Of a DNA stretch of 32,000 nt, positions 1,419 to 31,679 are shown in pieces (the stretch's first letter is position 1; every line of letters begins with the position of its first letter). The translations under genes were made by a program, and so were the position numbers. The notes under the pieces are model-generated. The model saw nothing but the letters and a program-made list of their open reading frames with translations. It made no database searches and was not told where the DNA came from. Source of the stretch: Nonlabens ponticola (GTDB taxonomy: Bacteria; Bacteroidota; Bacteroidia; Flavobacteriales; Flavobacteriaceae); NCBI RefSeq assembly GCF_003966335.1, contig NZ_CP034549.1, forward strand, positions 120,001 to 152,000, read 5' to 3'.

Positions 1419-1434
1419 CGCTTTCGCGAAAGCG
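1419..1434. repeat. Palindromic repeat CGCTTTCGCGAAAGCG, copy 1 (16/16)
   Basis: Exact 16-bp palindrome in the 50-nt gap between nqrC and nqrD, followed by TAATCAC. Confidence 0.95.
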
Positions 1435-1451
1435 TAATCACATTACCAGCA

Positions 1452-2177
1452 TTACTGCATGGCAACCTTTACGTCAGTTTTTGATTTAAAGTATGGTAGA
1501 TAATTCTTGAGTCTTTCAGAAATCATGTCGGTCACGCCATCACCGGTGATTGTAGCACCTGCGATAGCATCTACGGCATTGTCATCCTTGTTCTCACCGC
1601 CTTGGTAACCCTTTGCAACAGATACCCCTATAAAGTTCCCAGACTCATCCATGATTTTTTCATCATCAAAACGCTTCTTGAACCATCCTTGGGTAATTTC
1701 TGCACCTAGACCTGGCGTTTCTCCTTTATGATCAAACACTGCACCCTTGATCGTGTTCACGTCATCCTTTAAAGCTACATAACCCCATATAGCATCCCAA
1801 AGACCTTTACCTCTTAATGGCACAATATAGTATTGAGTGCCTTCAACATCAGCTACGTATAGAGGAAATGCCTGCTCTTCAACTGGCTTTTTAAGTTCCT
1901 TCTTGAGATCCACAGTAAATGCATCCACATCTGTGCGTACATCGCCGTTGTTATCCAATGCTAGTTGTTCAACGATATATTTATTAAAAAGAGTTGCAGC
2001 GCTATCTCTAGTAGTCTCGATACCAACAGTACCCAAGATGTTTTGCATCTTTTCTTCCTTTACATTCTTTGCTTGCGCTGGTTGCAAATTAGTTGCTGCA
2101 AAAGCTAACGTACATGCTACCACTGCCACCATTAAAAAGGCAAACAAAAATGTATATGAGTTTGAATTTCTATCCAT
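1452..2177 (-). CDS. nqrC: Na+-translocating NADH:quinone oxidoreductase subunit C
   Basis: It has an N-terminal TM anchor and an FMN-binding domain with the flavinylation-type motif DAIAGATITG. Its start lies 2 nt from the nqrB stop. Confidence 0.9.
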   Translation of the reverse strand: MDRNSNSYTFLFAFLMVAVVACTLAFAATNLQPAQAKNVKEEKMQNILGTVGIETTRDSAATLFNKYIVEQLALDNNGDVRTDVDAFTVDLKKELKKPVEEQAFPLYVADVEGTQYYIVPLRGKGLWDAIWGYVALKDDVNTIKGAVFDHKGETPGLGAEITQGWFKKRFDDEKIMDESGNFIGVSVAKGYQGGENKDDNAVDAIAGATITGDGVTDMISERLKNYLPYFKSKTDVKVAMQ

Positions 2178-2179
2178 GA

Positions 2180-3559
2180 TTAAGCTGTTTGAAGTTGTGC
2201 TTGAGCTTTTTTCAAGCGTTTTTTGCGCTTACCCACGTTTGCTTGAACAACATAATGATCAATCGTAGGTGCAAATACATTCATTAATAGAATAGCGAGC
2301 ATGATTCCTTCAGGATATGCTGGATTGAATATGCGTATCATGATACCAAAGAAACCAATCAAGATACCATAGATCCATTTTCCCTTAAAGGTTTGTGCAG
2401 CACTCACTGGATCAGTAGCCATAAAGACCACACCAAACAAGATACTACCTACAACCATATGCTGCCAGAATGGGAAGTTGATTAACTGATTTGTTCCTAA
2501 TTCCATAAGTGTTGCGTCCCATCCAGATAATCCTAGACCTGCAACGGCACCAGCATCATTGTAAACCTGATCCAATGTGATAGCACCACTTTCTACAAGA
2601 TTGGTGATAAAATCGTTACCCAAATTACCAAAGAAGTTAAATATCGCGCCCATGGCAAGACCACCTATGATACCACCTAAAATGATTCTCCAGCTACCTA
2701 CTTTGGTCGCTATTAATATAATGGCACCTAGAATAACTAGTAATGCAGAAGTTTCTGCCACGGATCCTGGAATCGTACCATAAAACATATCATCAAAACT
2801 AATATTTGAGAGCACTGATGCCTCTTCTACCGGTGCAGCAAATGCTACCGAGTTTGCAGCAGATCCCATCACGCTACCGTCGTATTGACCACTAGCCAAT
2901 GATCCTAAAATCGTCTCACCTGAAATGGCGTCCGTGCTACCTTCATGTACCCATATCGCATTACCTGACATGTAAAGAGGATATGCAAAGAATGCAAATG
3001 CTCTTGCCGTCAATGCTGGGTTCAAAATATTCATTCCCGTACCTCCAAAAGCTTCTTTACCAATGAGTACGGCAAATGCTACAGACAACGCTAGCATCCA
3101 TAATGGAATATCTACTGGGAAAATCATTGGGATCAACAATCCAGTTACCAGGTAACCTTCATTCACTTCATGACCACGATAAATCGCAAAGATGAATTCA
3201 ATCGTAAGACCTACAACGTAGGAAACGATGATCAATGGCATTACCAAAATAGCGCCTTCAATAAAAGCGTCCCAAAACGGCACATCCATAACACTAGCAA
3301 GACCTCTTTCTTGATATAGGTATTGCGCACCTGTGTTCCACATACCAAATAGTAGCGCTGGAATCAAAGCCAACACCACAGTAATCATGGTGCGCTTCAA
3401 GTCCACAACGTCACGTATGTGAGCACCTTTTTTGGTTGTGTGGTTAGGTGTGAAAAGAAATGTATCGAACGCATTGATTGCTGGAGCAAACTTTTCATAT
3501 TTCTCTCCAGGTTCGAAAGGCTTTCTAGCCTGATCTAATTTAGCTCTTACCCAATTCAT
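2180..3559 (-). CDS. nqrB: Na+-translocating NADH:quinone oxidoreductase subunit B
   Basis: A 459-aa protein of the NqrB/RnfD type: HEVNEGYLVTG, FGGTGMNILNPAL, DAISGETILG (flavinylation-type threonine), FMATDPVSAA, NPAYPEGIMLAIL. Confidence 0.9.
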   Translation of the reverse strand: MNWVRAKLDQARKPFEPGEKYEKFAPAINAFDTFLFTPNHTTKKGAHIRDVVDLKRTMITVVLALIPALLFGMWNTGAQYLYQERGLASVMDVPFWDAFIEGAILVMPLIIVSYVVGLTIEFIFAIYRGHEVNEGYLVTGLLIPMIFPVDIPLWMLALSVAFAVLIGKEAFGGTGMNILNPALTARAFAFFAYPLYMSGNAIWVHEGSTDAISGETILGSLASGQYDGSVMGSAANSVAFAAPVEEASVLSNISFDDMFYGTIPGSVAETSALLVILGAIILIATKVGSWRIILGGIIGGLAMGAIFNFFGNLGNDFITNLVESGAITLDQVYNDAGAVAGLGLSGWDATLMELGTNQLINFPFWQHMVVGSILFGVVFMATDPVSAAQTFKGKWIYGILIGFFGIMIRIFNPAYPEGIMLAILLMNVFAPTIDHYVVQANVGKRKKRLKKAQAQLQTA

Positions 3560-3563
3560 AGTT

Positions 3564-4907
3564 TTATCCTACTTCGGTTATCATTAAGTCTAGACCTAGA
3601 CGTATAATTTCTTGCGCCTCGATCTTTGATGTGTTCACATAATCTATTAATGCAAAATCTTCTGGTGCCACCTCATAGATACCTAAGTTCTCCATACTCT
3701 CGATGTCTCCAGCCATGCAGGCCTTAATCAATTGCATAGGATAAATATTCATAGGCATCACCTCTTCCATCTCGCCAGTCACTACCAGCGCTCTTTCCTC
3801 ACCATTAAGATTTGTATTCACTTTACTCTTACCACCAGTTAACCATGACAATGAGGTTCCAGAAATTGACGGTACATCATTTCGGGTAAATGGCAACCAT
3901 CCTAGAAAAGCATATTCATTACCTTCTGGAATGAGTGTTACCGTGTTGTGGTAATAGTTAAGATACTGGTCGTTATTAATCTGGTCGCCTGTCAAAACAT
4001 CACCAGAAATTATTCTAGTTTCCTGAGTATTTACTTCACCAACCAGATCAGAAACTTTTGCGCCAATTTTGGTCGTATAATAATGTCTCTTTTCCTCAGC
4101 AACCTCAGTTCCTGCAAGAGCTACCGTGCGCACTGCATCAAACTTACCTGTTAAGAATAAATTACCGATGGTTGCAACATCTTCTGCGCCAACAGCCCAA
4201 ACTTTCTCACCAAAATTGATAGGATCCAGTTTGTGGATTTGAACACCTACGTTTCCTGCTGGATGCGGCCCTTTCACTTTATGAACCTCAACATTCTTAA
4301 TATCGCTAAGGTTTGATTTTTTACCTATACACAAATGAACTTTACCTTCTGTCAATCTAGACAGTGCATTCACACCTGCTTGAAAGGCTTCTTTTCTATC
4401 CTTGAGAATAAAATCAACATCACCAGCAAGTGGTGCGCTGGTATAGGCCGAAATAAATATTGCTTTAGGAGTATCTTCTGGACCAGCGACAATATCGTAC
4501 GGTCTTTGGATGATAAACGGCCAGCAACCGCTTTCTAATAATCTTGTGCGTACTGCAGTAGGATCAGCTTGCAATGGATCCATGGATCCATGCTCGTAAA
4601 AAGTGTCACTCGCATCAGCTTGAATACGCACTTCCATTACGCGACGTTTTGCACCTCGCACGATCTCACTAATAGTACCGCTTACTGGTGCTGCAAATTT
4701 TACAGCCTCATCATACTTTGAATAGAAGATAATTTCGCCAGCTTTTACAGCTGCTCCTTCTTTCAAAATCAACTTAGGTACAACAGCATGAAAATCGGGT
4801 GGTTTCACAGCATAAACACTGGAACGCGGTGCGGTGACAAGCTTATGGCCTGCCTCACCTTTTAGCTTGAGATCAAGCCCTTTTCTTATTCGAATGTCTT
4901 TTGACAT
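3564..4907 (-). CDS. nqrA: Na+-translocating NADH:quinone oxidoreductase subunit A
   Basis: A 447-aa soluble protein and first gene of the cluster. The N-terminus MSKDIRIRKGLDLKLKGEA is typical of NqrA. It ends 4 nt before nqrB. Confidence 0.9.
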   Translation of the reverse strand: MSKDIRIRKGLDLKLKGEAGHKLVTAPRSSVYAVKPPDFHAVVPKLILKEGAAVKAGEIIFYSKYDEAVKFAAPVSGTISEIVRGAKRRVMEVRIQADASDTFYEHGSMDPLQADPTAVRTRLLESGCWPFIIQRPYDIVAGPEDTPKAIFISAYTSAPLAGDVDFILKDRKEAFQAGVNALSRLTEGKVHLCIGKKSNLSDIKNVEVHKVKGPHPAGNVGVQIHKLDPINFGEKVWAVGAEDVATIGNLFLTGKFDAVRTVALAGTEVAEEKRHYYTTKIGAKVSDLVGEVNTQETRIISGDVLTGDQINNDQYLNYYHNTVTLIPEGNEYAFLGWLPFTRNDVPSISGTSLSWLTGGKSKVNTNLNGEERALVVTGEMEEVMPMNIYPMQLIKACMAGDIESMENLGIYEVAPEDFALIDYVNTSKIEAQEIIRLGLDLMITEVG

Positions 4908-4939
4908 AGGATCTTTGGATTTAGTCCATTTTGGGACTG

Positions 4940-4966
4940 CAAATCTAGGTAATTATTGAACGCAAA
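4940..4966 (-). promoter_or_regulatory. Candidate Bacteroidota sigma-A promoter for the nqr operon (-7 TAgaTTTG, possible -33 TTTG)
   Basis: The plus strand at 4940..4947 is caaatcta, which is TAGATTTG on the minus strand and matches TAnnTTTG. caaa at 4963..4966 gives TTTG with a rather short 15-nt spacer. The -7 box lies 33 nt upstream of the nqrA ATG. Confidence 0.3.
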
Positions 4967-5071
4967 ATTATGAGGTAAAATTATTTAGAACTTATCTAAA
5001 TAAAGGTTTAAGGTCGCTTTGGCATTGCTTTCGCTTTAAGCTAAACCTATCTAAATTTAAGCTTTAAAACC

Positions 5072-5079
5072 TACTTTTG
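5072..5079 (+). promoter_or_regulatory. Candidate -7 box (TActTTTG) for the 5085 gene
   Basis: tacttttg matches TAnnTTTG but lies only 5 nt before the ATG at 5085. That would imply a nearly leaderless transcript. It may be a chance match. Confidence 0.2.
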
Positions 5080-5084
5080 CTTCT

Positions 5085-6338
5085 ATGAAGTATTTAATCT
5101 TTACTGTTATTTTCTTTTTGACAGTTCCGCCTATTTCTGCACAGGAAATGGATGAATTGGTCAATGATCCCGAATTCATAAAAACCGTTACACTCAATCG
5201 CCCTGCGGAAAATATGTTCCCGATCTACAAATTAGGTGAGCGCATAAATCTGTCATTTGATGACATTACAGCGCAGGAAGATGATTACTACTATCAGATT
5301 GAGCATTATGATTATAATTGGGAGCCCAGTGCGCTTTACAAGAACGAATTTATGACAGGTGTTGACGATCAGCGCATTATAAATTACCGCAATTCGTTTA
5401 CCACACTGCAAGCCTACAGTCATTATGAGTTAAGCATTCCCAATCGATGGACTGAGGCATTGACACGATCAGGAAATTACATGATCCACATCTATAATGA
5501 TGATCGTGAACTATTGTTCTCACGCAAATTTATGATTGTTGAACCTAGAGCCACCGTAGGTGTACAAATACGTAGAGCGCGTGACCTAGAATACGTCAAC
5601 ACACAACAGCGCGTTCAGTTTTTTGTAGACTCAAAAGAGATCAACTTTATCAATCCTGCACAAAATCTTAAGGTTGCTATCATACAAAATCTTGATCTAG
5701 AATCGGCGGTTTACGGTCTAGAGCCTCAATTCAATCTAGGTAATAGGCAGGAATACAATTATGATGGACCAGCATCTTTTTGGGCTGGTAATGAGTATTT
5801 GAATTTTGAAAGTAGGGATTTTAGGGCGCCTAACAACAATATTGATTTTGTCAAACTAGGCGAGCTTTACAACACCCATCTTTACATCGACCGATCAAGA
5901 TTTTTGGATGAATACACATACAATCCAGATATCAACGGTGGTTTTCTAGTGAGTACAGTTACTAATGAGGACAACGACATCCAGGCAGAATATACTAAGG
6001 TTCATTTTACCATGGATCCAGGCATCGTCCTGCCTGAAGGTACAAGCGTTTTTGTTTCTGGAAACTATAATGGCTATCAATTACAGGAAGAAAATCTCAT
6101 GGTGCATGATGAAGTAAGAAATCTATACACCACGACAATGCTCATGAAGCAAGGTTTTTACAACTACATTTATAGAGCCTATGATGCAAATGGCGAGGAA
6201 ATACCAGGATTGATTTCTGGCAATAAATGGCCTACCGAAAATCTTTACACAGTACTCGCCTACTATCGCGAGCCAGGTGGCCGTTATGATCGACTTATAG
6301 GAATAGGTGCTGGAAATAGCGCAAACATTACCAATTAA
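5085..6338 (+). CDS. Exported protein, DUF5103-like (family annotated as type IX secretion plug-domain protein in Bacteroidota)
   Basis: A 417-aa ORF with a signal peptide (MKYLIFTVIFFLTVPPISAQ). Composition is beta-rich and Asn/Tyr-rich. The CDS itself is solid. The family assignment is from memory of similar flavobacterial proteins and is not verified. Confidence 0.55.
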   Translation: MKYLIFTVIFFLTVPPISAQEMDELVNDPEFIKTVTLNRPAENMFPIYKLGERINLSFDDITAQEDDYYYQIEHYDYNWEPSALYKNEFMTGVDDQRIINYRNSFTTLQAYSHYELSIPNRWTEALTRSGNYMIHIYNDDRELLFSRKFMIVEPRATVGVQIRRARDLEYVNTQQRVQFFVDSKEINFINPAQNLKVAIIQNLDLESAVYGLEPQFNLGNRQEYNYDGPASFWAGNEYLNFESRDFRAPNNNIDFVKLGELYNTHLYIDRSRFLDEYTYNPDINGGFLVSTVTNEDNDIQAEYTKVHFTMDPGIVLPEGTSVFVSGNYNGYQLQEENLMVHDEVRNLYTTTMLMKQGFYNYIYRAYDANGEEIPGLISGNKWPTENLYTVLAYYREPGGRYDRLIGIGAGNSANITN

Positions 6339-6366
6339 TTATATTTGATCGACCCAACCATCGATC

Positions 6367-7512
6367 ATGAAGCATCCAGTAAGATCCTTGCCGCAATACC
6401 GCAGCACGCACTGTCTTAATTGCGAGACACCGCTGGAAGATGTGGACAAATATTGCCACCAGTGTGGACAGCTTAATAGTAAGAAGCGACTGGCACTAAG
6501 TGATTTTTTCAGTGAATTGTTCGCCAACTTTATCAGCTACGACAACAGGATATGGCGCACGATAAGCGGTATCCTTTTCAAACCAGGTAAGGTCACGCAG
6601 GAATACTGCGCAGGCAAGCGCGTTCATTATGCTAATCCATTCCGTTTCTTTTTATCAGTGACGATCGTCTTTTTCTTATTAGGTCAATTGTTTCTTAATT
6701 GGGACGATGATTTTACAGAGTTTGTAGAAGGAATGAATGAAGGCATCGAGAAAGGCATGGAACAAGCCCAAAGCGATGCAAATTTATTGGAATTGGTAAG
6801 GCGCCGTGATTCGCTAGAGTCTCAAGGCAATCGTATTGCCGCTGGCGTATTGACTGAGGTCATTGACGATATAGAGCTACAACCAGACAGCACTCAAGCG
6901 ATACCTAAATACGCAACCCAACAGCAGTTAGATGAGAAAAACTATCTCTATAAATACCTCGCTCAAACAGACGATTATAAAACGCATGCAGAACGTAATC
7001 CTGCCATGAACATCAATCAGGCACTCATAAGCCTTGATCATGAAGTCACTGATCTTAATCGATCGCGATACAGGAAAGCTCGTCGTTTTAATGCGCTAGA
7101 AAAGCAACCCTATCAATTAGTAGAAATGGTGGTACCCAAAATACCATTGTTCCTATTCTTTTTTGCACCAGCCATTAGCCTCTTTTTATGGTTGGTATAT
7201 ATTAGGAGAGACTATAATTATATGGAACACATGGTTTTCACCTTTCACGTGTTTACTTTCTTTTTCCTGAGTCTTTTTATATTGTTAGGTATGGTTAGTC
7301 TATCCTTCGGTTGGATCTCTTGGGAATGGATGAGCCTAATCATCTTAGGCGTTCTAGGGCCTTTTTACCTCTACAAAGCCATGCGCAATTTTTACAAACA
7401 AGGCAGATTTAAGACCATTGTCAAGTTTGCATTTTTAAATTTTGTATTTTTAGTGCTATTCACAGTAAGCGCCAGCCTATTTGTCGTGGGCAGCGTGTTT
7501 ATAGGAGTCTGA
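6367..7512 (+). CDS. DUF3667-type membrane protein with N-terminal zinc ribbon
   Basis: The N-terminus has CLNC-x11-CHQC (HCLNCETPLEDVDKYCHQCGQ). It is followed by FKPGKVTQEYCAGKRVHYANPFRF and several C-terminal TM helices. Confidence 0.7.
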   Translation: MKHPVRSLPQYRSTHCLNCETPLEDVDKYCHQCGQLNSKKRLALSDFFSELFANFISYDNRIWRTISGILFKPGKVTQEYCAGKRVHYANPFRFFLSVTIVFFLLGQLFLNWDDDFTEFVEGMNEGIEKGMEQAQSDANLLELVRRRDSLESQGNRIAAGVLTEVIDDIELQPDSTQAIPKYATQQQLDEKNYLYKYLAQTDDYKTHAERNPAMNINQALISLDHEVTDLNRSRYRKARRFNALEKQPYQLVEMVVPKIPLFLFFFAPAISLFLWLVYIRRDYNYMEHMVFTFHVFTFFFLSLFILLGMVSLSFGWISWEWMSLIILGVLGPFYLYKAMRNFYKQGRFKTIVKFAFLNFVFLVLFTVSASLFVVGSVFIGV

Positions 7513-7513
7513 C

Positions 7514-7900
7514 ATGTTACAACAGGTTACCAGAGGCATCAAGATATCGGTGCAAACGAGTTTTCAGGGTACATTTTATAAGAATTATAAGATGCACTTT
7601 GCCTTTGGGTACCAGATTACTATTGAGAACCAAAGCAAGGACAGCGTGCAGCTCAACTCACGCCAGTGGAAGATTCAAGACAGTTTGAACAACACACAGG
7701 TCGTCACCGGTGAAGGCGTGATAGGCAAGAAACCAGTCCTTAAACCAGGTGAGTCTCACAGTTATGAGAGCGGTTGTTTACTAGCGTCATCCTTTGGCAA
7801 CATGAGCGGCTTTTACAATATGGTTAACCTCACTTCTACACGGCAATTCACTGTTTTTGTCCCTAGCTTTAAGCTTAGTGCACCGTTTGCGCTTAATTAG
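7514..7900 (+). CDS. apaG: ApaG (DUF525) protein
   Basis: A 128-aa protein with the ApaG-type signature QLNSRQWKIQDSLNNTQVVTGEGVIGKKPVLKPGESHSYESGC. It starts 1 nt after the previous stop. Confidence 0.8.
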   Translation: MLQQVTRGIKISVQTSFQGTFYKNYKMHFAFGYQITIENQSKDSVQLNSRQWKIQDSLNNTQVVTGEGVIGKKPVLKPGESHSYESGCLLASSFGNMSGFYNMVNLTSTRQFTVFVPSFKLSAPFALN

Positions 7901-7977
7901 ACATAGCTTGTAGCGGTCGCACGATAGCTCACATTATAATACCTCACTTTACTTTTAATTTTATTTTTTCTCGGTTC

Positions 7978-7993
7978 CGCTTTCGCGAAAGCT
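7978..7993. repeat. Palindromic repeat, copy 2 (CGCTTTCGCGAAAGCt, 15/16)
   Basis: The 14-bp core GCTTTCGCGAAAGC is exact. It lies 78 nt downstream of apaG. Confidence 0.95.
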
Positions 7994-8250
7994 TATAAGC
8001 CCAAAGTCAATCATCAAGCAAAGAACATGGTGGTACTATCTCTCCTGTTGCACGATAGCTTTACTGCTTACCTACCATGATGAAGAAATCAAAATCTTGT
8101 GCAACTCCTATCCTAATTGCCAGAGAACTCTAGATAAAGCAGAAGAAACTTATAATTTCTAAATACTTGGAGTAAAAAATCATCAGCCCACTTGCAAGCA
8201 GTTGTAAAACGACCGTGATCTCCTTATTATGATGATGTGGTTGAGAATTA

Positions 8251-8266
8251 TGCTTTCGCGAAAGCG
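8251..8266. repeat. Palindromic repeat, copy 3 (tGCTTTCGCGAAAGCG, 15/16)
   Basis: The core is exact. It lies 110 nt upstream of the pruA ATG at 8376. Confidence 0.95.
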
Positions 8267-8375
8267 TTATTATTCTATTAAAACTATGCGCTCATACGCT
8301 TTACCAATAGACAGCTGTAGGCATTGCGTGTATGATTTTGTACTTTCACAGCTGAATAAAATAAGACACATTATC

Positions 8376-12400: not shown

Positions 12401-13042
12401 TTACAACGGCAAGTGCACTACTTTTTTAGTCTCAAAGAAAGGATCTTCAAATACTTGGTCTAGATCATAGACATCAGCATATTTGAATGGCTTGAGTTCT
12501 TCTCGTAGGTCGCCGCCTTTAAGATACAAGATTCCGTTTTCTATCTCGTGGTAGCTGTCCTTGCGCACCTTATTGCGAGTCCAGCTTACAAAATCGGTCA
12601 TGTTGGTTACCGCTCTTGAGACGATAAAGTCAAATCTGCCGCGTACTTTTTCGGCTCGACCATGTTCTGTTGTGACGTTTTCAAGGCCTAGTGCTTCTAC
12701 TATGGCATCCACTACTTTTAGTTTTTTAGCAATGGAATCGACTAGGTGAAATTTTGTTTTTGGAAACATGATCGCCAACGGTATTCCTGGGAAGCCACCA
12801 CCAGTTCCAACATCTAGTACTCTTGTACCGCCTGGTGTATTGGGTAAGCTTTCGCGAAAGCGGACTACACTTACAATTCCCAGCGAGTGTAAAACATGCC
12901 TGGTATATAATTGATCGATGTCTTTTCTAGATATCACATTGATCTGGGCATTCCACTCTTTATAAAGATCACCCAGTTGTGCAAACTGGCGCTCTTGCTT
13001 TGCGGTGATATGCGGGAAATGTTTTTTGATGATTTGTGACAC
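12401..13042 (-). CDS. rsmG: 16S rRNA (guanine527-N7)-methyltransferase RsmG (GidB)
   Basis: It has the SAM motif VLDVGTGGGFPGIPLAI and a C-terminal FVSRAV block. The start is placed at the GTG at 13042 (VSQIIKKHFPHITAKQ), giving 213 aa. The track start at 13102 adds 20 non-conserved-looking residues and closes the divergent intergenic gap. Confidence 0.85.
   Translation of the reverse strand: MSQIIKKHFPHITAKQERQFAQLGDLYKEWNAQINVISRKDIDQLYTRHVLHSLGIVSVVRFRESLPNTPGGTRVLDVGTGGGFPGIPLAIMFPKTKFHLVDSIAKKLKVVDAIVEALGLENVTTEHGRAEKVRGRFDFIVSRAVTNMTDFVSWTRNKVRKDSYHEIENGILYLKGGDLREELKPFKYADVYDLDQVFEDPFFETKKVVHLPL
12847..12862. repeat. Palindromic repeat, copy 4 (aGCTTTCGCGAAAGCG, 15/16), inside rsmG
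   Basis: The core is exact. On the minus strand it is translated as V-V-R-F-R-E-S-L within RsmG. Confidence 0.95.
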
Positions 13043-17275: not shown

Positions 17276-17291
17276 TGCTTTCGCGAAAGCG
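17276..17291. repeat. Palindromic repeat, copy 5 (tGCTTTCGCGAAAGCG, 15/16)
   Basis: The core is exact. It sits in the trkA/ubiE divergent intergenic region, followed by TAATAAC. Confidence 0.95.
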
Positions 17292-17344
17292 TAATAACTC
17301 AAACATCGCCACTGCATTGTATCTTTGAGAACTAATCCTATAAC

Positions 17345-22136: not shown

Positions 22137-23204
22137 ATGAGTCACAATATCAAACCAGGTGTTGCCACAGGCGACCAAGTTCAAGAAATATTTAACCATG
22201 CCAAAGCCAATGGCTACGCGCTACCGGCAGTTAACGTCGTGGGATCTAATACGATTAATGCGGTATTGGAAACAGCGGCAGAACTTAACTCACCTGTTAT
22301 AATCCAATTCTCAAATGGCGGCTCACAGTTCAATGCTGGAAAAGGCTTAAGCAATGAGGATCAAAAAGCAGCCATATTAGGCGGCGTTGCTGGTGCAAAA
22401 CACGTTCATCAACTAGCCGTAGCTTATGGTGCTACCGTGATACTACATACCGATCACTGTGCAAAACCACTACTGCCGTGGATTGATGGTTTATTAGATG
22501 CAAGTGAAGCACGCTTTCGCGAAAGCGGAAAACCACTCTATTCTTCACACATGATTGACTTGAGTGAAGAACCGCTAGAAGAGAACATCGAGATATGCAA
22601 GAAGTACCTAGAGCGTATGTCCAAAATGGATATGACCCTAGAAATAGAGCTAGGCATCACTGGTGGTGAAGAAGATGGAGTCGATAATAGCGATGTTGAT
22701 GAGTCAAAATTATATACGCAGCCAGAAGAAGTAGCTTATGCTTATGAAGAGTTAAGCAAGGTGAGTGATAAATTCACGATCGCCGCAGCCTTTGGTAATG
22801 TACACGGTGTTTACAAACCAGGTAATGTGAAGTTGACGCCTAAAATCTTGAAAAACTCACAAGAATACGTGACTAAAAAATATGGTGTTGAAGAAAATCA
22901 TATTGATTTTGTCTTTCACGGTGGTTCCGGTTCTACCCTAGAAGAGATACGTGAAGCCATAGGATACGGTGTCATCAAAATGAACATCGATACAGATCTA
23001 CAGTGGGCTTTTGCCACCGGTATTAAAGGCTATATGGACAAGAATGATGATTTCCTGCAGTCACAAATAGGAAACAGCACAGGTCCAGATTCACCTAACA
23101 AAAAGTATTATGACCCACGCAAGTGGTTGCGTGTAGGAGAAGAATCATTCAAGGCGCGCTTGAAGCAGGCTTTTGAAGATTTGAATAATGTAAATACACT
23201 TTAA
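22137..23204 (+). CDS. fbaA: Class II fructose-1,6-bisphosphate aldolase
   Basis: It is near-colinear with enterobacterial FbaA as I remember it: HTDHCAKPLLPWIDGLLDA, SSHMIDLSEE, LEIELGITGGEEDGVDN, FGNVHGVYKPGNV, FVFHGGSGS, NKKYYDPR. Confidence 0.95.
   Translation: MSHNIKPGVATGDQVQEIFNHAKANGYALPAVNVVGSNTINAVLETAAELNSPVIIQFSNGGSQFNAGKGLSNEDQKAAILGGVAGAKHVHQLAVAYGATVILHTDHCAKPLLPWIDGLLDASEARFRESGKPLYSSHMIDLSEEPLEENIEICKKYLERMSKMDMTLEIELGITGGEEDGVDNSDVDESKLYTQPEEVAYAYEELSKVSDKFTIAAAFGNVHGVYKPGNVKLTPKILKNSQEYVTKKYGVEENHIDFVFHGGSGSTLEEIREAIGYGVIKMNIDTDLQWAFATGIKGYMDKNDDFLQSQIGNSTGPDSPNKKYYDPRKWLRVGEESFKARLKQAFEDLNNVNTL
22512..22527. repeat. Palindromic repeat, copy 6 (16/16), inside fbaA
   Basis: Exact 16-mer, translated as A-R-F-R-E-S-G within FbaA. 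Confidence 0.95.
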
Positions 23205-24116: not shown

Positions 24117-24125
24117 TGACTTCCA

Positions 24126-24697: not shown

Positions 24698-24724
24698 ACT
24701 CTCTAATATAATTCTCTTTTTCAA

Positions 24725-24753: not shown

Positions 24754-24831
24754 CAGCCGCTTAGAGATTGATTCTCAAGGCATCGTCAGAGAGACTGACA
24801 TACATAATATTCATTATAAAATAATTTTGGC

Positions 24832-25101: not shown

Positions 25102-25107
25102 AAAAAT

Positions 25108-25131
25108 GGGGACCGCGTGTCCCCTTTTTTA
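25108..25131 (+). terminator. Rho-independent terminator/attenuator after rpsO
   Basis: The stem pairs ggggac (25108..25113) with gtcccc (25119..25124) around a 5-nt loop, followed by tttttt. Confidence 0.8.
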
Positions 25132-25190
25132 GTTTTAGACAAGTCTTACGACTACTCTTTAGAATATACGCCCCACGAGGTTTATCGTGA

Positions 25191-25212
25191 TTACGCTTTC
25201 GCGAAAGCGTAA
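25191..25212. repeat. Palindromic repeat, copy 7 (16/16, extended to the 22-bp palindrome TTACGCTTTCGCGAAAGCGTAA)
   Basis: The exact 16-mer is at 25194..25209, with complementary TTA/TAA flanks. It lies in the rpsO-pnp intergenic region, 96 nt upstream of the pnp ATG. Confidence 0.95.
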
Positions 25213-25305
25213 CAAAAACAACTATCGCAACAACAAAAGCTGGTTTCTCACTGAGTAAACGCCTTCTCTACCACACACAACTTGAGATAACGTTTAAATT
25301 AAACT

Positions 25306-27552
25306 ATGAAACCACAAGTTTTTAAGCAGGTGATCAAGATGGCTAACGGCCCAGACATCACCATTGAAACTGGAGCGCTTGCAAAACAAGCACATGGATC
25401 TGTTGTGATCACATGTGGCAAGGCCATGCTTCTAGGAACTGTAGTGTCCAGCTACAAATCTACTGGACTTGACTTCTTACCACTTACCGTAGATTACCGT
25501 GAGAAATTTGCCGCAGCCGGTAAATATCCAGGTGGATTCTTCAAGCGTGAGGCACGTCCTAACGATGGTGAAGTTCTTACCATGCGTCTTGTTGACCGTG
25601 TTTTAAGACCACTATTCCCTAAGGATTACCATGCAGAAGTGCAGGTAATGATACAATTGATGTCTCACGATGATGAGGTGATGCCAGATGCTATGGCTGG
25701 TCTTGCTGCAAGTGCAGCGATCCAATTGTCTGACCTACCTTTTGAATGCCCGATTTCTGAAGTGCGTGTTGCACGTGTAGATGGTGAGTTTGTCATCAAC
25801 CCTAGCTACTCACAACTGGAAGCTGCAGACCTTGAAATGATGATAGGTGCCAGCGCCGACAGTGTGATGATGGTAGAAGGTGAGATGGAAGAAGTATCTG
25901 AAGAAGATATGATCGCTGCTATCAAAGCGGCTCATGAAGCTATCAAAGATCAATGTGCTGCTCAAGTTGCCCTAGCAGAAGCTGTAGGCAAGAAAGAAGT
26001 ACGCGAGTATGAAGGCGAGAAAGAAGATGCAGATATTGAAGCTAAAGTTGCTGCACTTGCATACGACAAGGTATATGAGGTAGCCAAAAAAGGAAGCGGT
26101 AAGAAAGAGCGCAGCTTAGCTTTTAGCGAAGTGAAAGAAGAAGTGAAGTCCCAATTCTCTGAAGAAGATCAAGAAGAAAACGGTGACTTAATTTCTAAGT
26201 ACTTCAGCAAGACGCATAAAAAAGCGGTACGTGATGTATTGCTCAATGAAGGTATACGTCTAGATGGTCGCAAGACTACAGACATACGTGATATCTGGTG
26301 TGAGGTAGATTACCTACCATCAACGCACGGTAGTGCTATTTTCTCACGTGGTGAGACTCAAGCACTAGCAACGGTAACGCTAGGTACTTCTAGAGATGCT
26401 AATATCATTGATATGGCTTCACAAGAAGGTGAAGAGCGTTTTTACCTACACTACAATTTCCCACCATTCTCAACTGGTGAGGCGCGCCCATTACGCGGTA
26501 CGTCACGTCGTGAGATAGGACACGGTAACCTGGCACAACGTGCATTAAAAAAGATGCTTCCTGAAGATCTTCCATACACCGTACGTGTAGTGAGTGAAGT
26601 ATTGGAATCTAACGGTTCTTCTTCTATGGCAACTGTTTGTGCAGGAACCATGGCATTGATGGACGCAGGTCTACCTATGAAGAAACCAGTTTCTGGTATC
26701 GCCATGGGATTGATTACTGAAGGTGATAAATATGCCGTACTATCTGATATTCTAGGTGATGAAGATCACTTAGGAGATATGGACTTTAAAGTTACTGGTA
26801 CTGAAGATGGTATCACCGCTTGTCAAATGGACATCAAGGTAAAAGGACTTTCTTATGAAATCCTGACCAACGCACTGATGCAAGCCAAAGAAGGTCGCAT
26901 GCACATTCTAGGTAAATTGACTGACACGATCGCCACTCCAGCAGCAGATGTGAAGCCACATGCTCCTAAGATGGAATCTATGGAGATTGAAGGTAAGTAC
27001 ATTGGTGCCGTGATAGGACCTGGTGGTAAAGTCATTCAAGAAATGCAAAAAGAGACCGATACCGTTATCAACATCAAGGAAGAAGATGAGATGGGTATCA
27101 TTGAGATCGCAGGTACAGATCGTGCCAATATTGAGGCAGCTCTTGAGAAAATACGCAATATCATCTTTGAACCAGAAGTAGGCTCTGTCTATGAGGTAAA
27201 GGTGGTGAAGATGCTAGACTTTGGTGCCGTGGTAGAATTCAAGCCAGGTAAGGAAACTTTACTACACGTGAGTGAGTTTGATTACAAGCGCATTGAAGAT
27301 CCATCAACGGTTCTTAAGGTAGGTGATGTACTTGATGTTAAATACATGGGTGTAGATCCACGTACCAAGAAGCAGAAAGTTTCTCGTAAGGCAGTGCTAC
27401 CAAAACCAGAAGGTTGGGTAGAGCGTCCACCACGTGAGCGCAATGATCGTGGCCGTGGTCGTGATGACCGTCGTGGCGGTGGCCGCCGTGACGACCGTCG
27501 TAGAGATGATCGCCCGAGACGTGACAACGATGATAAGAAGTCAGAGGATTAA
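25306..27552 (+). CDS. pnp: Polyribonucleotide nucleotidyltransferase (PNPase)
   Basis: A 748-aa protein with two RNase PH domains ([46 protein letters not shown]) plus KH ([17 protein letters not shown]) and S1 ([20 protein letters not shown]) domains. It ends in an Arg/Asp-rich tail. Confidence 0.95.
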
Positions 27553-27561
27553 AAAACTGTC

Positions 27562-27582
27562 ACCCTGAACTGGTTTCAGGGT
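27562..27582. other. 8-bp stem hairpin ACCCTGAA-ctggt-TTCAGGGT immediately after the pnp stop
   Basis: A perfect inverted repeat at 27562..27569 and 27575..27582. It has no T-run and is distinct from the true terminator 20 nt downstream. Confidence 0.7.
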
Positions 27583-27600
27583 CTCAAAATTCCTAAACCA

Positions 27601-27637
27601 AAACCGCCACTAGAAATTCTAGCGGCGGTTTTTTTAT
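27601..27637. terminator. Bidirectional rho-independent terminator between pnp and the convergent 27652 gene
   Basis: aaaccgccactagaa (27601..27615) pairs with ttctagcggcggttt (27617..27631) with one mismatch, followed by ttttttt. It is A-rich on the other side. Confidence 0.8.
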
Positions 27638-27651
27638 GAATGAAATGATTG

Positions 27652-28170
27652 CTACTCAAATGACATTACTGCCGTATTGATAATTAGGCAATCGTCATCA
27701 GTATCAGGGTGCGCTACTCTACTGTTATAAGCATGAATCATTTCATTATACAGTGCCCAGATCTCTAACACCTTGCGATCTGAAGCGTTTAACTTGTTAA
27801 GGTTTTCGGTGTTGGGACGATAGATTGTTTTCCGTGCATGGCTATCAGTATCGTAAGATAAAAGCATTTCGTCAGCTTCTACATCAATCAAAAAGTTTTT
27901 AAACTCAAGCCATGGCGATTTATACTTGTATTTTCTACCATTCACGGTAATTCGTCTCCCATCATGTTTAAACTCAACTCCATCGACACTCAGGATATCG
28001 TTTGTCATGAAATGATTATCATGAGCAACATATAATGGATCAATTTGTAGGCCTACCTTGTAGTCGCCAGTATCATAAATCAAGGTGTCAGATATGATCT
28101 CAAACTTGTGTATCGCGTTCTGCGCCAATGAAAAAATTGGTAATAATAGAAGAAGTAAAAGTTTATTCAT
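27652..28170 (-). CDS. Exported hypothetical protein
   Basis: The start is placed at the ATG at 28170 (MNKLLLLLLLPIFSLAQNA, a signal peptide), giving 172 aa. I recognise no family. It lies 62 nt downstream of, and co-oriented with, the rhodopsin gene. Confidence 0.6.
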   Translation of the reverse strand: MNKLLLLLLLPIFSLAQNAIHKFEIISDTLIYDTGDYKVGLQIDPLYVAHDNHFMTNDILSVDGVEFKHDGRRITVNGRKYKYKSPWLEFKNFLIDVEADEMLLSYDTDSHARKTIYRPNTENLNKLNASDRKVLEIWALYNEMIHAYNSRVAHPDTDDDCLIINTAVMSFE

Positions 28171-28232
28171 GATGATTGGTTTCCTAAACCTCATCAAGTT
28201 GCATGCCAGCTAAAAATATGTTCAGCAACCTA

Positions 28233-29078
28233 CTACCCTACATTCATCGCAAACTCTTTGGAACTAGTATCCAGGCGATCTTCCAATAATCGAGATGCCA
28301 TCAAATAGGCAATGATACCTACACCAGCTTTATTTACTACATCAGCTATCGAGAAAGTGATGTGTATCCAACTGTTGTCCATTTCAGGAAAGAGCGCAAC
28401 AAGAATATACCCAATAGGGTAAACGCCCCATAAAGTCACGACTGTTAGCGACATGTATTTATAGGCACGACGTTCTAAAGTCTTGGCCTCATGGCGGTAT
28501 TTATTCCATATCTGATACATGCCTACCAGCACCATAGTATAACCTACGGTTGAAATCGCACCCCAAATCATACGTGATTGTACCATAATGGAACCGTCTG
28601 CATCCAACTGTTGCTGCCCAATAAACCCAGTGGCAATCATGAAAATATCTCCCAAAACTACCAGCGCAACAATCACAGCGATTCTTGAGTACTTGATGCG
28701 CAAGACACTGATCATTTTGATCAATAATAGCGGTGTGGTCACCATCCAGTCCATGTAACGCAACTGACCTATAGCGTTGTAGCCATTGCGCTTAAATTCA
28801 TTGCGGGTCGTCTCATCTGTGATAGTCTGTAATTCTTGGAGAAAATCTTTATAGTAATCGCTTATAATGAAGTAGCTAATGCCTGCCACCACACAGATAA
28901 TTGCTGTAAACACACGACTTGTATTATGTTCTGGCGCCACGTGCGTTCTGGTAAACCAGCTGAAAAAAAAGGATGCTACAAAACAAAAGAATGCGACCAT
29001 CATCACATAATAAGTGGCTACTTCTAGTAACCCTAGGCCATCGCCTACTGCTGGTATAAATGAGTTCGCTAAATCCAT
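28233..29078 (-). CDS. Microbial (type 1) rhodopsin with D-T-K helix-C motif
   Basis: A 281-aa protein with 7 predicted TM helices. Helix C is R107-YM-D110-WMV-T114-TPLLLI-K121. Helix F is TLW217GVY220P221. Helix G is SIAD246VVNK250AGVG, which carries the Schiff-base lysine. I verified the codons for D110 (28749..28751), K121 (28716..28718) and K250 (28329..28331) on the sequence. Confidence 0.9.
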   Translation of the reverse strand: MDLANSFIPAVGDGLGLLEVATYYVMMVAFFCFVASFFFSWFTRTHVAPEHNTSRVFTAIICVVAGISYFIISDYYKDFLQELQTITDETTRNEFKRNGYNAIGQLRYMDWMVTTPLLLIKMISVLRIKYSRIAVIVALVVLGDIFMIATGFIGQQQLDADGSIMVQSRMIWGAISTVGYTMVLVGMYQIWNKYRHEAKTLERRAYKYMSLTVVTLWGVYPIGYILVALFPEMDNSWIHITFSIADVVNKAGVGIIAYLMASRLLEDRLDTSSKEFAMNVG

Positions 29079-29189
29079 AATGAATTGAATGTTGAGCTAC
29101 AAAGTAGGAAATAGCACACGCAATCAAACGTGCGTTAAGAAAGTTTTGAAGTTATAGACTCCTTTGAGCGTATCAGTTTATAGAATTTA

Positions 29190-29205
29190 CGCTTTCGCGA
29201 AAGCG
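29190..29205. repeat. Palindromic repeat, copy 8 (16/16)
   Basis: Exact 16-mer in the divergent region between the rhodopsin gene (start 29078) and the T9SS cargo gene (start 29317). It has 111 nt on each side. Confidence 0.95.
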
Positions 29206-29316
29206 AGGTCTTAAAAAACATATCACCGGAAATACGAAATGTTCAAGCATCAAAATGGTAAGAAATTTAATGCTTATAAATATTATTTTTATTCAACCTA
29301 TTTGTAATCCTTCCAA

Positions 29317-31605
29317 TTGTTATTAAATCGTAGCATATTATTATTTGTATTTCTATCAATCCCAAGTTCTCTTTTTGCTCAAAAAGAAGGCAATACATGG
29401 GTTTTTGGTCAAAATGCGGGTGTCGAATTTGATGGTATCGCTGTGCGCTCCATCGAAGAGGCTCGTTTCAATTCTACCGAGGCCGCAGCATCTATATCTG
29501 ACAGATTTGGAAATTTTTTATTTGCGACCGACGGTACAAGGGTAATCAACTCTGAATTTCAGACCATGGAAAATGGAGACGATTTAGATGGATCTCAAAG
29601 CTCTGCTCAAATCGTCATCTTGCCTGATCCGACTAACGAGCTGAGATACTATATTTTCTATATAAGCAAACAAAATGATAGACTGAATCTCAATTATGCG
29701 TTGGTTTCGTTTGTTTCAAATCCCTTGGGTAACGTCATTCTTAAAAATTTAAATTTGAGAAGCAATGTTACTGAACGGCTCACTTGGCTTTACGGTGATT
29801 ACATAAATAGTTTCTATATAATTGCTAGTAGTTCAGATACTTTTTTTGTGTACTCGCTAGATACCGCAGGATTGAATGAGTCACCTCGCAGCTTTAAGAT
29901 GAATACCGATGACATCATCGAGATAAGCCAAATCAAATATAACGCAGCGCGGGATTTGATCGCTAACGCCAATCGAGATCAAATTGAGATTATGAATTGG
30001 GATCGTGATTCTGGTGCTGTTCAAGATAGTTTTGTTATAGACTTTGAAGACCGAGGTGATTTCAATTCCATTTACAGCATTGAATTTTCAAAATCTGGCA
30101 GATACCTTTATGCTAGCACCGTTTTTGACGGTATTTATCAAATTGATTTGCAAGATCTCAATTCCGAAGATGCCCAAAATTCAATTACCCAACTGTTACC
30201 TATAAATCCAGTGGTTAGGGATAATGGCGTGCAAGTTCTGGATTGGGCTTTACAAATAGGGCCCAATGATAAAATATATGTTTGCCACGGCGGTTATGAT
30301 GCATTAGGTGTTCTAGAAAATCCTGAAAATGAAGCAGGCTCAGTAAATTACAATTTTGCTTCAGTACCATTAGATGGTCTTACCGGAATCAGTTTACCGC
30401 AGTTGCCACCTTCTTTTAAATTTGGCGATATCATTACAAGAAACAATTGTAGCGGCGAGACTGTCAATATAGAATTGATTACAAACATTCTAGGTACAGT
30501 GACTTGGAATTTAGGTGATGGCACTATAATAAGTGGTAATCCCATTGATCATATATATAGCGACTCAGGCACGTATCAAATAACCGCTACTGTCTCTTCA
30601 CAATCTGGCAATATAACGTTCAGTCAAGAAATAGAAATGTTTCAAAGCCCGCCAGATTTGAACAATCTAGAAATCATTATTTGTAATGATGACGCGATTA
30701 GTCCCAATCAAATTTTAGATCAGATTGATGATTTCGATGATAGGGAACTTTATGAAATTGGACTTTATTCATCCGTAAACGATGCAATGGAGATGATCAA
30801 TGAAATTAGTGATCCTATTACTCTTAACGACAGTACGACTGAACTTTTTCTCAATATCTACAATCCAGATAATCTTGCTTGCTCTAATATCACTACGCTT
30901 GAGATCACAAAAGAAAACCTTGACATTGACAATTTTCAAGAATTAGAGATTTGTCCAAATGCTGCAACGACGATCTATGCACCAGAAGGATTTAATAATT
31001 ATCAATGGTCTGATGGAACGACAGGCCAGCAAATAGATATCACAAACGCTGAAAGTATTAGCGTCTCGTTCAATACCAGAGCTGACGATTCAGGTTGTGA
31101 ACTAGAAGTACATTACAATTTCATTAATAGATCATTGATTCAAGAAATAGAGGCCCGAGTTGTAGAATCTACTAGCAGTGGCAACACTATTGAAATTTTA
31201 TCGCCGTTGGGTGATGATTATGAATACGCTATCGACGGTATTTCCTTTCAATCAGAGCCATTATTCGAAAATTTACCAAACGGCATCTATACCATAACTG
31301 CACGCGACACCTTGTGTGACCAAGTGTACTCATCAGAAATTGTAATTTCTAGATTGCCAAAATTTTTTACTCCCAATGGCGATGGTTTCAATGACGTATG
31401 GAATCCATTCAGCGATACAGAACGAGATATTTTATTAGTCAGGATTTTTGATAGATACGGTAAGTTGCTTACTCAATTATCACCATCTCAGCCTTCATGG
31501 GACGGCACGATAGACGGACAGGATTTACCCAGCTCAGATTATTGGTATTCCATAATTGATGAAAGCGATAAAGTTATCAACGGACATTTTACTTTGAAAA
31601 GATGA
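29317..31605 (+). CDS. T9SS type-B C-terminal sorting domain (gliding-motility-associated CTD) cargo protein with PKD domain
   Basis: A 762-aa protein with a signal peptide (ILLFVFLSIPSSLFAQ). It has a PKD-like block WNLGDGTIISGNPIDHIYSDSGTYQITATV. The C-terminal block is PKFFTPNGDGFNDVWNPF...YGKLL...WDGT...SDYWYS, typical of the type-B CTD. The apparent start codon is TTG, so the exact start is uncertain. Confidence 0.8.
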   Translation: MLLNRSILLFVFLSIPSSLFAQKEGNTWVFGQNAGVEFDGIAVRSIEEARFNSTEAAASISDRFGNFLFATDGTRVINSEFQTMENGDDLDGSQSSAQIVILPDPTNELRYYIFYISKQNDRLNLNYALVSFVSNPLGNVILKNLNLRSNVTERLTWLYGDYINSFYIIASSSDTFFVYSLDTAGLNESPRSFKMNTDDIIEISQIKYNAARDLIANANRDQIEIMNWDRDSGAVQDSFVIDFEDRGDFNSIYSIEFSKSGRYLYASTVFDGIYQIDLQDLNSEDAQNSITQLLPINPVVRDNGVQVLDWALQIGPNDKIYVCHGGYDALGVLENPENEAGSVNYNFASVPLDGLTGISLPQLPPSFKFGDIITRNNCSGETVNIELITNILGTVTWNLGDGTIISGNPIDHIYSDSGTYQITATVSSQSGNITFSQEIEMFQSPPDLNNLEIIICNDDAISPNQILDQIDDFDDRELYEIGLYSSVNDAMEMINEISDPITLNDSTTELFLNIYNPDNLACSNITTLEITKENLDIDNFQELEICPNAATTIYAPEGFNNYQWSDGTTGQQIDITNAESISVSFNTRADDSGCELEVHYNFINRSLIQEIEARVVESTSSGNTIEILSPLGDDYEYAIDGISFQSEPLFENLPNGIYTITARDTLCDQVYSSEIVISRLPKFFTPNGDGFNDVWNPFSDTERDILLVRIFDRYGKLLTQLSPSQPSWDGTIDGQDLPSSDYWYSIIDESDKVINGHFTLKR

Positions 31606-31663
31606 ATTCCATGTTCAAAATGCTATCTCGGTCATCATAATTTTAAACGTTTTTTGAATGACT

Positions 31664-31679
31664 ACGCTTTCGCGAAAAC
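31664..31679. repeat. Palindromic repeat, copy 9, degenerate (CGCTTTCGCGAAAaCc, 14/16)
   Basis: The left arm is intact and the right arm has two changes. It is followed by TAATCAC, as in copy 1. It lies between convergent gene ends at 31605 and 31694. Confidence 0.8.

Follow-up and report, generated by a model that had tools for sequence, protein, structure and literature searches.

A stretch of 32,000 nucleotides of the Nonlabens ponticola genome (contig NZ_CP034549.1, positions 120,001 to 152,000; the whole stretch is called the window below) holds eight exact copies of the 14-bp palindrome GCTTTCGCGAAAGC, raising the question of what kind of element is kept so exactly in genes and spacers alike. 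All eight copies were found at the positions given in an earlier note on this DNA, made from the sequence alone, and dinucleotide shuffling of the window gives an expected count of 0.00, which excludes chance. On balance, and with moderate confidence, we interpret the palindrome as a lineage-specific, hyper-abundant genomic 'word', of the class of the cyanobacterial highly iterated palindrome HIP1 and of uptake signal sequences (USS), and not as a mobile repeat. The usual form of the word is the core flanked by C and G (C-core-G), and one copy is met every 4-5 kb or so in Nonlabens, Dokdonia and their marine relatives among the Flavobacteriaceae.

We estimated abundance in nine loci that had not been picked for the motif, comprising the window and four loci each from the surroundings of pnp and of fbaA, and totalling 205 kb (the unbiased loci). 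These contained 44 exact copies of GCTTTCGCGAAAGC, or one per 4.7 kb, against ~0.0004 predicted from base composition, which is an enrichment of roughly 100,000-fold; extrapolation to a genome of 2.9-3.4 Mb gives ~600-800 copies. The repeat family proposed in the earlier note is therefore genuine and not a local duplication, and the word also fills Dokdonia, other Nonlabens and uncultured Flavobacteriaceae. A scan for the 14-mer with one genome per species, divided into 8-kb tiles, matched at least 120 tiles. Among the matches listed, 33 tiles were from Dokdonia, 24 from Nonlabens (including strain BBFL7), 26 from uncultured Flavobacteriaceae, two from low-GC genomes labelled only 'uncultured bacterium', six from other Flavobacteriia and 29 from unrelated, mostly high-GC phyla. 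Many of the listed Dokdonia and Nonlabens tiles held 2-3 copies per 8 kb; the tiles from unrelated phyla held one copy each, and were taken as chance for this reason. We did not find GCTTTCGCGAAAGC in any paper in the literature searched, nor did searches for Dokdonia, Nonlabens or Bacteroidetes together with palindromes yield a title or abstract on such an element, coverage being incomplete in both cases.

Motif density seems to differ strongly among species. Nonlabens sp. Ci31 (locus L123) has one copy in 22 kb, as opposed to five or six in its sister species (L121, L122 and L124). The Ci31 locus also contains an insertion sequence transposase and additional small open reading frames (ORFs). 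Separately, an integrase-led block of small ORFs at L122:18818-22244, probably an integrated element, lies in ~6 kb with no copies, which is too short for significance; this agrees with recently acquired DNA lacking the word, and is not significant alone.

A large share of the copies lies inside genes. Long open frames contained 111-121 of 169 copies, read as AFAKA (62), RFRES (30) or LSRK (29); the coding fraction was about half in the unbiased loci (53% of 43 copies), and ranged overall from 47 to 69%. Per base, spacers are nevertheless 3-5-fold denser in copies than genes. The mostly intergenic location described in the earlier note thus applies to the window, in which only the rsmG and fbaA copies are truly intragenic, but not to the family as a whole, half to two-thirds of whose copies are intragenic. 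Across the long frames of the 205 kb, the corresponding peptides were spelled with the exact word in 10 of 10 cases for AFAKA, 16 of 16 for FRES and 12 of 13 for LSRK, where codon usage predicts ~0.8%. This near-universal spelling rules out selection at the level of the peptide. The signal resides in the DNA, and not in peptide or RNA.

Comparison of orthologues shows how copies arise. The fbaA genes of the window, of two other Nonlabens and of a less closely related clade of 46% GC read GCA/AAA CGC TTT CGC GAA AGC GGA (RFRES), and the 16-mer CGCTTTCGCGAAAGCG present here in the window is also found in L244, L245 and L247. Genes without the motif, from the closer relative L246 and from most other Flavobacteriaceae, read CAC TTT AAA GAA ACA (HFKET or similar, KFYKEH); the two versions are equal in length, and are 6 nt and three amino acids apart. 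The same holds for trkH, rlmB and tamL, in which motif-bearing and motif-free orthologues are equally long and differ by substitutions only. At all four coding sites the proto-sites in motif-free orthologues are 5-8 mismatches off, with no indel. Base substitutions at look-alike sites create the copies where they stand, leaving the length unchanged. A miniature inverted-repeat transposable element (MITE) was rejected on the same evidence, equal-length orthologues differing by substitutions instead of by presence/absence indels; as the earlier note had remarked, the unit is also far too short for a MITE, and we found no transposase gene, and likewise no RAYT gene, among the genes of the window.

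Copies stay letter-perfect at orthologous positions while the neighbouring DNA diverges. In an alignment of the rpsO-pnp spacer, CGCTTTCGCGAAAGC is invariant in seven Nonlabens species, within flanks rich in substitutions and indels. Strain YIK11 has all three of the sites found in the trkH-pnp block of the window, the rsmG site is exact in a related metagenome-assembled genome (L246:624), and the trkA/ubiE site has exact orthologous copies at L244:5140 and L245:4988, and is absent in L246 and L247. Other relatives share part of the sites of the window, and have further sites private to them. Only two genes were comparable between Dokdonia and Nonlabens; in both, the Dokdonia coding sites correspond to ordinary residues in the Nonlabens homologues, and each is motif-free in the other genus. 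Thus, the word is common to the genera, and many of its positions turn over.

The spectrum of mismatches to the 14-mer is correspondingly sharp. Over 421 kb of tiles from Dokdonia and Nonlabens and a further 121 kb from the unbiased loci, we counted 120 copies with no mismatch, nine with one and seven with two (~1 expected), and background level from three mismatches upwards, indicating that the word has no cloud of degenerate relatives. The rare variants have changes mostly at the outer positions. Decayed copies in family-type flanks were identified at L247:2239 and L247:4724 (GGTTTCGCGAAAGC, one mismatch; CCTTTCGCGCAAGC, two mismatches), and the rlmB gene of L245 (~7160) has GCTCAAGCGAAAGC, with three mismatches, where another clade holds an exact copy; we read all three as direct examples of site decay. 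A possible relic that the earlier note had placed at ~5027 is merely a half-site, and half-sites occur at chance frequency.

Copies are distributed more evenly than random, and avoid neighbours within ~1 kb. We compared the spacing with a null weighted for intergenic enrichment, with spacers 3-5 times denser than genes. In the unbiased loci, 35 gaps had a coefficient of variation of 0.43 (null 0.87), with one gap below 1 kb where 8.2 were expected (P=0.0002). Similarly, 53 gaps in the tiles had a coefficient of variation of 0.48 (null 0.75), and two gaps below 1 kb where 14.6 were expected (P=0.0002). The usual gap between copies is 2-6 kb. The result held under the intergenic-weighted null, and even spacing as an artefact of gene structure was rejected.

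Finally, the palindrome stands in a dyad-symmetric context of ~70 bp, in which the 5' arm is C-poor and the 3' arm G-poor on both strands. Over ~28 nt of the 5' arm the frequency of C falls to 0.01-0.15, and T and G are raised; over ~28 nt of the 3' arm it is G that is scarce, and A and C that are raised. An arm score, summing C upstream and G downstream, was 4.8 at copies versus 9.25 for positions drawn at random (P=3e-50). Gene-oriented coding copies show the pattern no less strongly, in either arm and at each of the three codon positions, synonymous ones included, and the residues before the word consequently lean to G/V/D/F/L and those after it to Q/T/P/N/K/Y. At orthologous coding sites, sequences with the motif scored 5.4 and those without it 10.75 (P=0.0025), and a tamL copy specific to the L246 lineage has a score of 10, with no skew yet. 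The 3-nt periodicity of the arms matches codon phase, and the arms contain no helically phased A/T tracts. Base changes in the arms do not follow a pure transition spectrum, C at positions -20 to -11 being replaced chiefly by G, and an origin of the arms through deamination only was rejected because the changes are not purely transitions. The arms may be a part of the recognised signal, or else the scar of a process running outward from the core on each strand. Closer to the core, C/G occupies the ±1 positions in ~85% of copies and T/A the ±3 positions in ~70%, with ±2 variable; the flank consensus proposed in the earlier note exists, but is weaker than claimed.

We additionally identified the word in phage DNA. 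In a scan of viral contigs, most matches were single copies, and high-GC contigs never had more than one, which looks like chance or common descent among related contigs. Low-GC flavobacterial phage or prophage contigs contained 2-3 copies per 11-14 kb, and several (L214, L178, L161, L239/L242 and L148/L165/L170) carried the palindrome at near-host density, structural genes included. One of these, the 12-kb IMG/VR contig L214, encodes portal, protease, capsid and adaptor proteins, the capsid being 45% identical to that of Cellulophaga phage phi39:1, and some of its copies are intragenic. Copies in phage contigs have an arm score of 7.5, intermediate between host copies and random DNA. The cultured, lytic Nonlabens phage P12024S (L248, JQ823122), which has no annotated integrase, contained no copies and no variants within two mismatches in its 35.7 kb, where ~7 are predicted at host density, the motif status of its own host being unscored. 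The word is thus not imposed on every DNA replicating in these cells, and a host mutational bias acting on any resident DNA was rejected on the strength of this copy-free phage, with the same reservation as to its host strain. The phage lineages that do carry the motif are perhaps temperate. As side observations, identical copies recur in related phage contigs from different metagenomes, and P12024S encodes recombination proteins (ERF, YqaJ-like) and a DNA methyltransferase.

The copies in the window are listed in Table 1. The 16-mer CGCTTTCGCGAAAGCG is exact in four of the eight copies, and one mismatch away in the remaining four. The gene contexts named in the earlier note were all right, as were the TAATCAC common to copies 1 and 9 and the perfect 22-bp palindrome at the core of copy 7, which spans 25191-25212. 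The decayed ninth copy exists as well, although not at 31664 as had been noted. Copy 3 appears coding only because the pruA ORF call is over-extended: the longest ORF begins 147 nt before the likely start MGKGFFNVPV... (8229-8375 being extra), and the family profile matches from residue 62.

Table 1. Copies of the palindrome in the window (CDS, coding sequence; SAM, S-adenosylmethionine; T9SS, type IX secretion system)
Copy	Position	Start of 14-mer	Sequence	Context
1	1419..1434	1420	exact CGCTTTCGCGAAAGCG	50-nt nqrD-nqrC spacer, within nqr operon
2	7978..7993	7979	exact 14-mer	78 nt 3' of apaG
3	8251..8266	8252	exact 14-mer	pruA leader/promoter region, ~110 nt 5' of likely start (~8376)
4	12847..12862	12848	exact 14-mer	rsmG CDS, minus strand; encodes RFRES just ahead of LDVGTGGG SAM-binding motif
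5	17276..17291	17277	exact 14-mer	divergent trkA/ubiE spacer, 29 nt 5' of TAnnTTTG-type -7 box (17320-17327)
6	22512..22527	22513	exact 16-mer	fbaA CDS; encodes RFRES
7 with arms	25166..25237	25195	exact 16-mer (25194-25209)	rpsO-pnp spacer, between rpsO terminator and conserved pnp leader
8	29190..29205	29191	exact 16-mer	divergent spacer, rhodopsin gene / T9SS cargo gene
9	31665..31680	31666	decayed CGCTTTCGCGAAAACC, 14-mer one mismatch off	convergent spacer; family-type flanks TAC...TAATCAC

What, then, could hold such a word in place? Its reader would be a two-fold symmetric, sequence-specific protein acting on duplex DNA, and its job would be chromosome-wide and not gene-specific, in a class with HIP1, USS and the DNA uptake sequences (DUS), Noc/SlmA sites and Chi; the exactness of the copies would be held by selection, or by biased transmission or repair. 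HIP1 (GCGATCGC) offers the closest parallel, being a short perfect palindrome that is hugely over-represented within and between ORFs. HIP1 sites are conserved between genomes beyond their surroundings, and act as a DNA-level signal with no promoter link and a non-random, kilobase-scale distribution (PMC5861425), and their one-off variants are biased to the outer positions (PMC4390886). For HIP1, an origin in methyl-directed repair has been put forward (PMC4390886), and neither its function nor its reader protein is known (PMC5861425, PMC4390886). In contrast, the word described here belongs to a different phylum, the Bacteroidota, and has an unrelated sequence of 14-16 bp instead of 8 bp, and it should be regarded as an analogue of HIP1, and not a member of its family. 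HIP1 is enriched 15-300-fold, as opposed to ~100,000-fold here, and reaches more than one copy per gene, as opposed to one per ~4.7 kb; the spacing signal here is an avoidance of short gaps and not a tested 10-90 kb periodicity, and strand-asymmetric arms of ~28 nt do not figure in the accessible parts of the two HIP1 studies (PMC5861425, PMC4390886).

The single most likely specific role, which we put forward tentatively and by analogy, would be that of a tag marking self-DNA for uptake or recombination, comparable to the USS of Pasteurellaceae and the DUS of Neisseriaceae. Such a tag, which the earlier note had listed among its candidates, would be compatible with the substitution origin, the conservation, the spacing and the two-genus range of the word. 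USS and DUS likewise occur in hundreds to thousands of near-exact copies enriched in spacers, are common to related genera, whose flanks differ slightly in the way of 'dialects', arise by substitution in place, and have an extended low-information flank around a strict core; the absence of the word from a lytic phage is a further resemblance. Between 34.5 and 65% of uptake sequences lie in ORFs, as compared with 47-69% of copies in coding sequence here, and they use few reading frames and encode poorly conserved residues (PMC2817400); their build-up takes place at the existing sites (PMC2817400, PMC1939737). In the class Flavobacteriia, natural competence and a preference for self-DNA are documented for Riemerella columbina (PMC7965970).

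Several points weigh against our reading of the element as a genomic word of the HIP1 and USS class. The role is assigned by analogy, and our statistics come from pieces of 8-22 kb. The known USS and DUS are asymmetric, and indeed we know of no palindromic uptake sequence, nor of any report of competence in Nonlabens or Dokdonia; the density of the word is ~4-fold lower than theirs. One-off variants, at ~8% of exact copies, are also rarer here than in published USS counts, which could suggest templated repair instead of uptake drive. The strand-asymmetric arms are not explained by simple binding of a dimer to duplex DNA, and a weak covariation at ±2 (0.40 observed versus 0.23 expected in Nonlabens) allows for some contribution of a hairpin or cruciform.

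It is possible, and again we say so tentatively, that the palindrome serves as the loading or recognition point of a machine, so far undescribed, that has two-fold symmetry and works outward along a single strand to either side. Such a machine would account for the poverty in C and richness in G/T, over ~28 nt on both sides and even in genes, of the strand that reaches the core 5'->3'. Candidates for such a machine would include a bidirectional Chi-like signal for recombination or self-recognition, the first sequence-specific uptake tag of Bacteroidota, and a dedicated nick-and-patch repair. Chi resembles the word in its frequency of ~1 per 4-5 kb, its mostly coding location and its lineage-specific sequence, and the G/T-rich strand that ends 3' at the motif is reminiscent of the GT-rich islands around Chi; Tracy, Chedin and Kowalczykowski reportedly described, in 1997, GT-rich preferred RecA pairing sequences around Chi in E. 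coli. Unlike the word, Chi is an asymmetric sequence of 5-8 nt that is co-oriented with replication and only modestly over-represented, whereas the motif, being a perfect 14-bp palindrome of extreme enrichment, has no orientation. The palindromes read by ParB-family proteins, parS (TGTTTCACGTGAAACA) and the Noc-binding site NBS (ATTTCCCGGGAAAT), are similar in being perfect palindromes of 14-16 bp built on TTTC...GAAA half-sites, near-exact and scattered along the chromosome. However, they number from a few (parS) to ~70 (NBS) per genome, as opposed to the 600-800 extrapolated here, and their TTTC and GAAA blocks are separated by 4 bp instead of 2 bp.

Of the alternatives to a transmission or recombination tag, a site for nucleoid architecture or topology survives best, though we consider it rather unlikely. 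An abundant dimeric architectural protein, or gyrase or topoisomerase IV, would wrap ~30 bp on each side of the palindrome, and regular spacing would be selected to organise loops or supercoiling, as proposed for HIP1; sites of the topology type are known in the gyrase-binding repetitive extragenic palindromic (REP) sequences and bacterial interspersed mosaic elements (BIMEs). The symmetric, footprint-sized context of ~70 bp, the even spacing of 2-6 kb and the conservation of sites in genes and spacers alike would all fit, and an HIP1 analysis reads a comparable palindrome in this way (PMC5861425). On the other hand, the arms show a strand-specific skew in place of helically phased A/T tracts, selection on each site would be very weak, copies in phage structural genes are hard to square with such a role, and 14 invariant bp would be unusually strict for an architectural protein. 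The earlier note's suggestion of a dimeric regulator or nucleoid protein is accordingly sustained for a nucleoid-type site, but not for a gene-specific operator.

Less likely than an architectural site, in our estimate, is that the word is a by-product of sequence-specific short-patch repair, possibly methyl-directed as in Elhai's model for HIP, in which a near-perfect palindrome in a heteroduplex would be repaired toward the motif, and outward 5'->3' synthesis of ~25-30 nt on each strand would leave a mutational scar in the arms. The scarcity of one- and two-off variants and the bias of their changes to outer positions are consistent with this, and the same was reported for HIP1 (PMC4390886). 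Repair could also accommodate the G-poor strand that leaves the core 5'->3' on both sides over a patch-sized length, the lineage-specific tamL copy of L246 without arm skew, the intermediate arm score of phage copies and the copy-free lytic phage P12024S. However, the proto-sites of new copies are 5-8 substitutions away, which repair of single mismatches cannot supply, and a neutral drive does not predict even spacing. The changes in the arms, with C giving way mainly to G at -20 to -11, are not the pure transitions of deamination, and TCGCGA and CGCG are at expectation outside the motif.

The three remaining readings, an operator, a REP-like element and a side-effect of restriction-modification, have even taken together only a small chance of being right. 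We give very little credence to an operator for a dimeric global transcription factor with a large regulon. The palindrome is of operator size, several copies in the window occupy divergent promoter regions or leaders (trkA/ubiE, rhodopsin/cargo, pruA and pnp), and some copies lie 13-29 nt 5' of TAnnTTTG -7 boxes. However, half or more of the copies are deep in CDSs, and copies stand at no fixed distance from promoter elements (13 and 29 nt); divergent spacers hold 18 copies where ~15 are expected by spacer length, only a slight excess. The neighbouring genes have no common theme, real operators are degenerate where this site is invariant over 14 bp, and regulons do not show even spacing.

A REP-like element is less credible again; it would fold into a hairpin as single-stranded DNA or RNA, owe its spread to a RAYT/IS200-type transposase, and act as a stabiliser of mRNA or a terminator. 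REPs are imperfect palindromes of 20-40 bp with stable hairpins, extragenic, often clustered in alternating orientation, variable in sequence and linked to a RAYT gene (PMC2817692). The word resembles REPs and BIMEs in being palindromic, high in copy number and 3-5-fold enriched between genes, and a weak covariation at ±1 and ±2 and the position of some copies at gene 3' ends or in operon gaps would be in keeping with such an element. In contrast to REPs, 47-69% of copies are coding, in frame and without change of length, copies avoid short gaps and form neither clusters nor BIME-like arrays, and the sequence is almost invariant, with no compensatory stem variants. The hairpin role suggested in the earlier note fares no better on folding energy, which is only -1.9 kcal/mol for the core and -6.0 kcal/mol with two additional pairs. 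Comparison of in-register arm complementarity and minimum free energy with chimeric, random-flank and GT/GT controls gave no signal past ±2, and an extended hairpin was rejected, since real arms fold no better than chimeric or random ones. We did not find the architecture of an intrinsic terminator at the copies, whose A/C-rich 3' flank and T/G-rich 5' flank reverse the terminator order; canonical terminators stand alongside, as after rpsO (25108-25130, just 5' of copy 7), and convergent spacers hold four of 55 copies, if anything a depletion relative to spacer length. The window has no match in Rfam and no transposase gene.

Least probable of all is a side-effect of restriction-modification of NruI type (TCGCGA) or of CGCG specificity, which the earlier note had raised from the motif centre: with motif copies masked, TCGCGA occurs 38 times versus 36.1 expected and CGCG 340 times versus 406, half-sites are ordinary, TTCGCGAA and longer words are almost confined to the full 14-mer (44 of 47), as is TTTCGCGAAA (44 of 46 occurrences inside the full word), and the selected unit is consequently the whole 12-14-mer and not the hexamer; moreover, restriction-modification systems normally cause avoidance of their own palindrome, and not 100,000-fold enrichment.

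Besides the motif, the window encodes nqrE-A, a T9SS plug gene, apaG, pruA, rsmG, an aminotransferase, trkH, trkA, ubiE, porT, an rRNA methyltransferase, tamL, fbaA, accD, rpsO, pnp, a rhodopsin and a T9SS cargo protein. The polynucleotide phosphorylase (PNPase) is 92-94% identical to Nonlabens proteins. The rhodopsin (28233-29078, minus strand) matches annotated Nonlabens ponticola at 100%, and its next relatives are only 57-69% identical; more distant matches are many from Hymenobacter, Spirosoma, Mucilaginibacter and Lewinella, rather than marine flavobacterial proteorhodopsins. Judging from these matches, the protein could be a rhodopsin of unusual type or have been acquired laterally.

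The pnp 5' leader (25235-25298; also in L121-L124, L244, L246 and L247) contains blocks conserved across eight species, including a palindrome-free out-clade, namely AAAAGCTGGTTTCTCA and CTTCTC.ACCACACACAACTTGAGA.AACGTTTAA, with no match in Rfam; the leader is a candidate cis-regulatory element, perhaps one by which PNPase regulates itself. The pnp leaders of N. spongiae (L122:9600-9990) and Ci31 (L123:9850-9960) have extra inserts of 100-250 nt that are absent from other species and rich in CTTCGAC / TTCGA(G/C)TTC repeats and small inverted repeats, and these may be a separate small mobile or repeat element. TAnnTTTG boxes (TATCTTTG, TAACTTTG and TATTTTTG), which we take to be the Bacteroidetes -7 promoter element, are conserved 5' of ubiE (in the window at 17320-17327, and in L244, L245 and L247) and of rpe (L121, L123, L124 and L244).

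Hyper-abundant, maintained words are rare and poorly understood, HIP1 having remained without a known function after decades, and the palindrome described here would be an example from genera of Bacteroidota that serve as ocean models. It differs from the known words in its phylum, its strict 14-16 bp core, its ~100,000-fold enrichment and its strand-asymmetric arms. Because the core is unusually long and strict, its reader protein should be far easier to identify than that of an 8-mer; the arms provide an additional mechanistic clue to this reader, and the contrast in density between Ci31 and its sister species a natural comparison for locating the gene responsible. The word may be of use as a taxon marker for binning, and for assigning temperate phages to their hosts. 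To our knowledge, only two families of proteobacteria have sequence-specific uptake tags, and if the word were an uptake signal, it would offer a route to transform genetically difficult bacteria. It imposes AFAKA, RFRES and LSRK on proteins, together with G-poor or C-poor neighbouring codons. If the palindrome is indeed the point from which a symmetric machine works outward along one strand on each side, these abundant marine Flavobacteriaceae would possess a DNA signal system that is new, acts across the whole chromosome and is strong enough to reshape their proteins.

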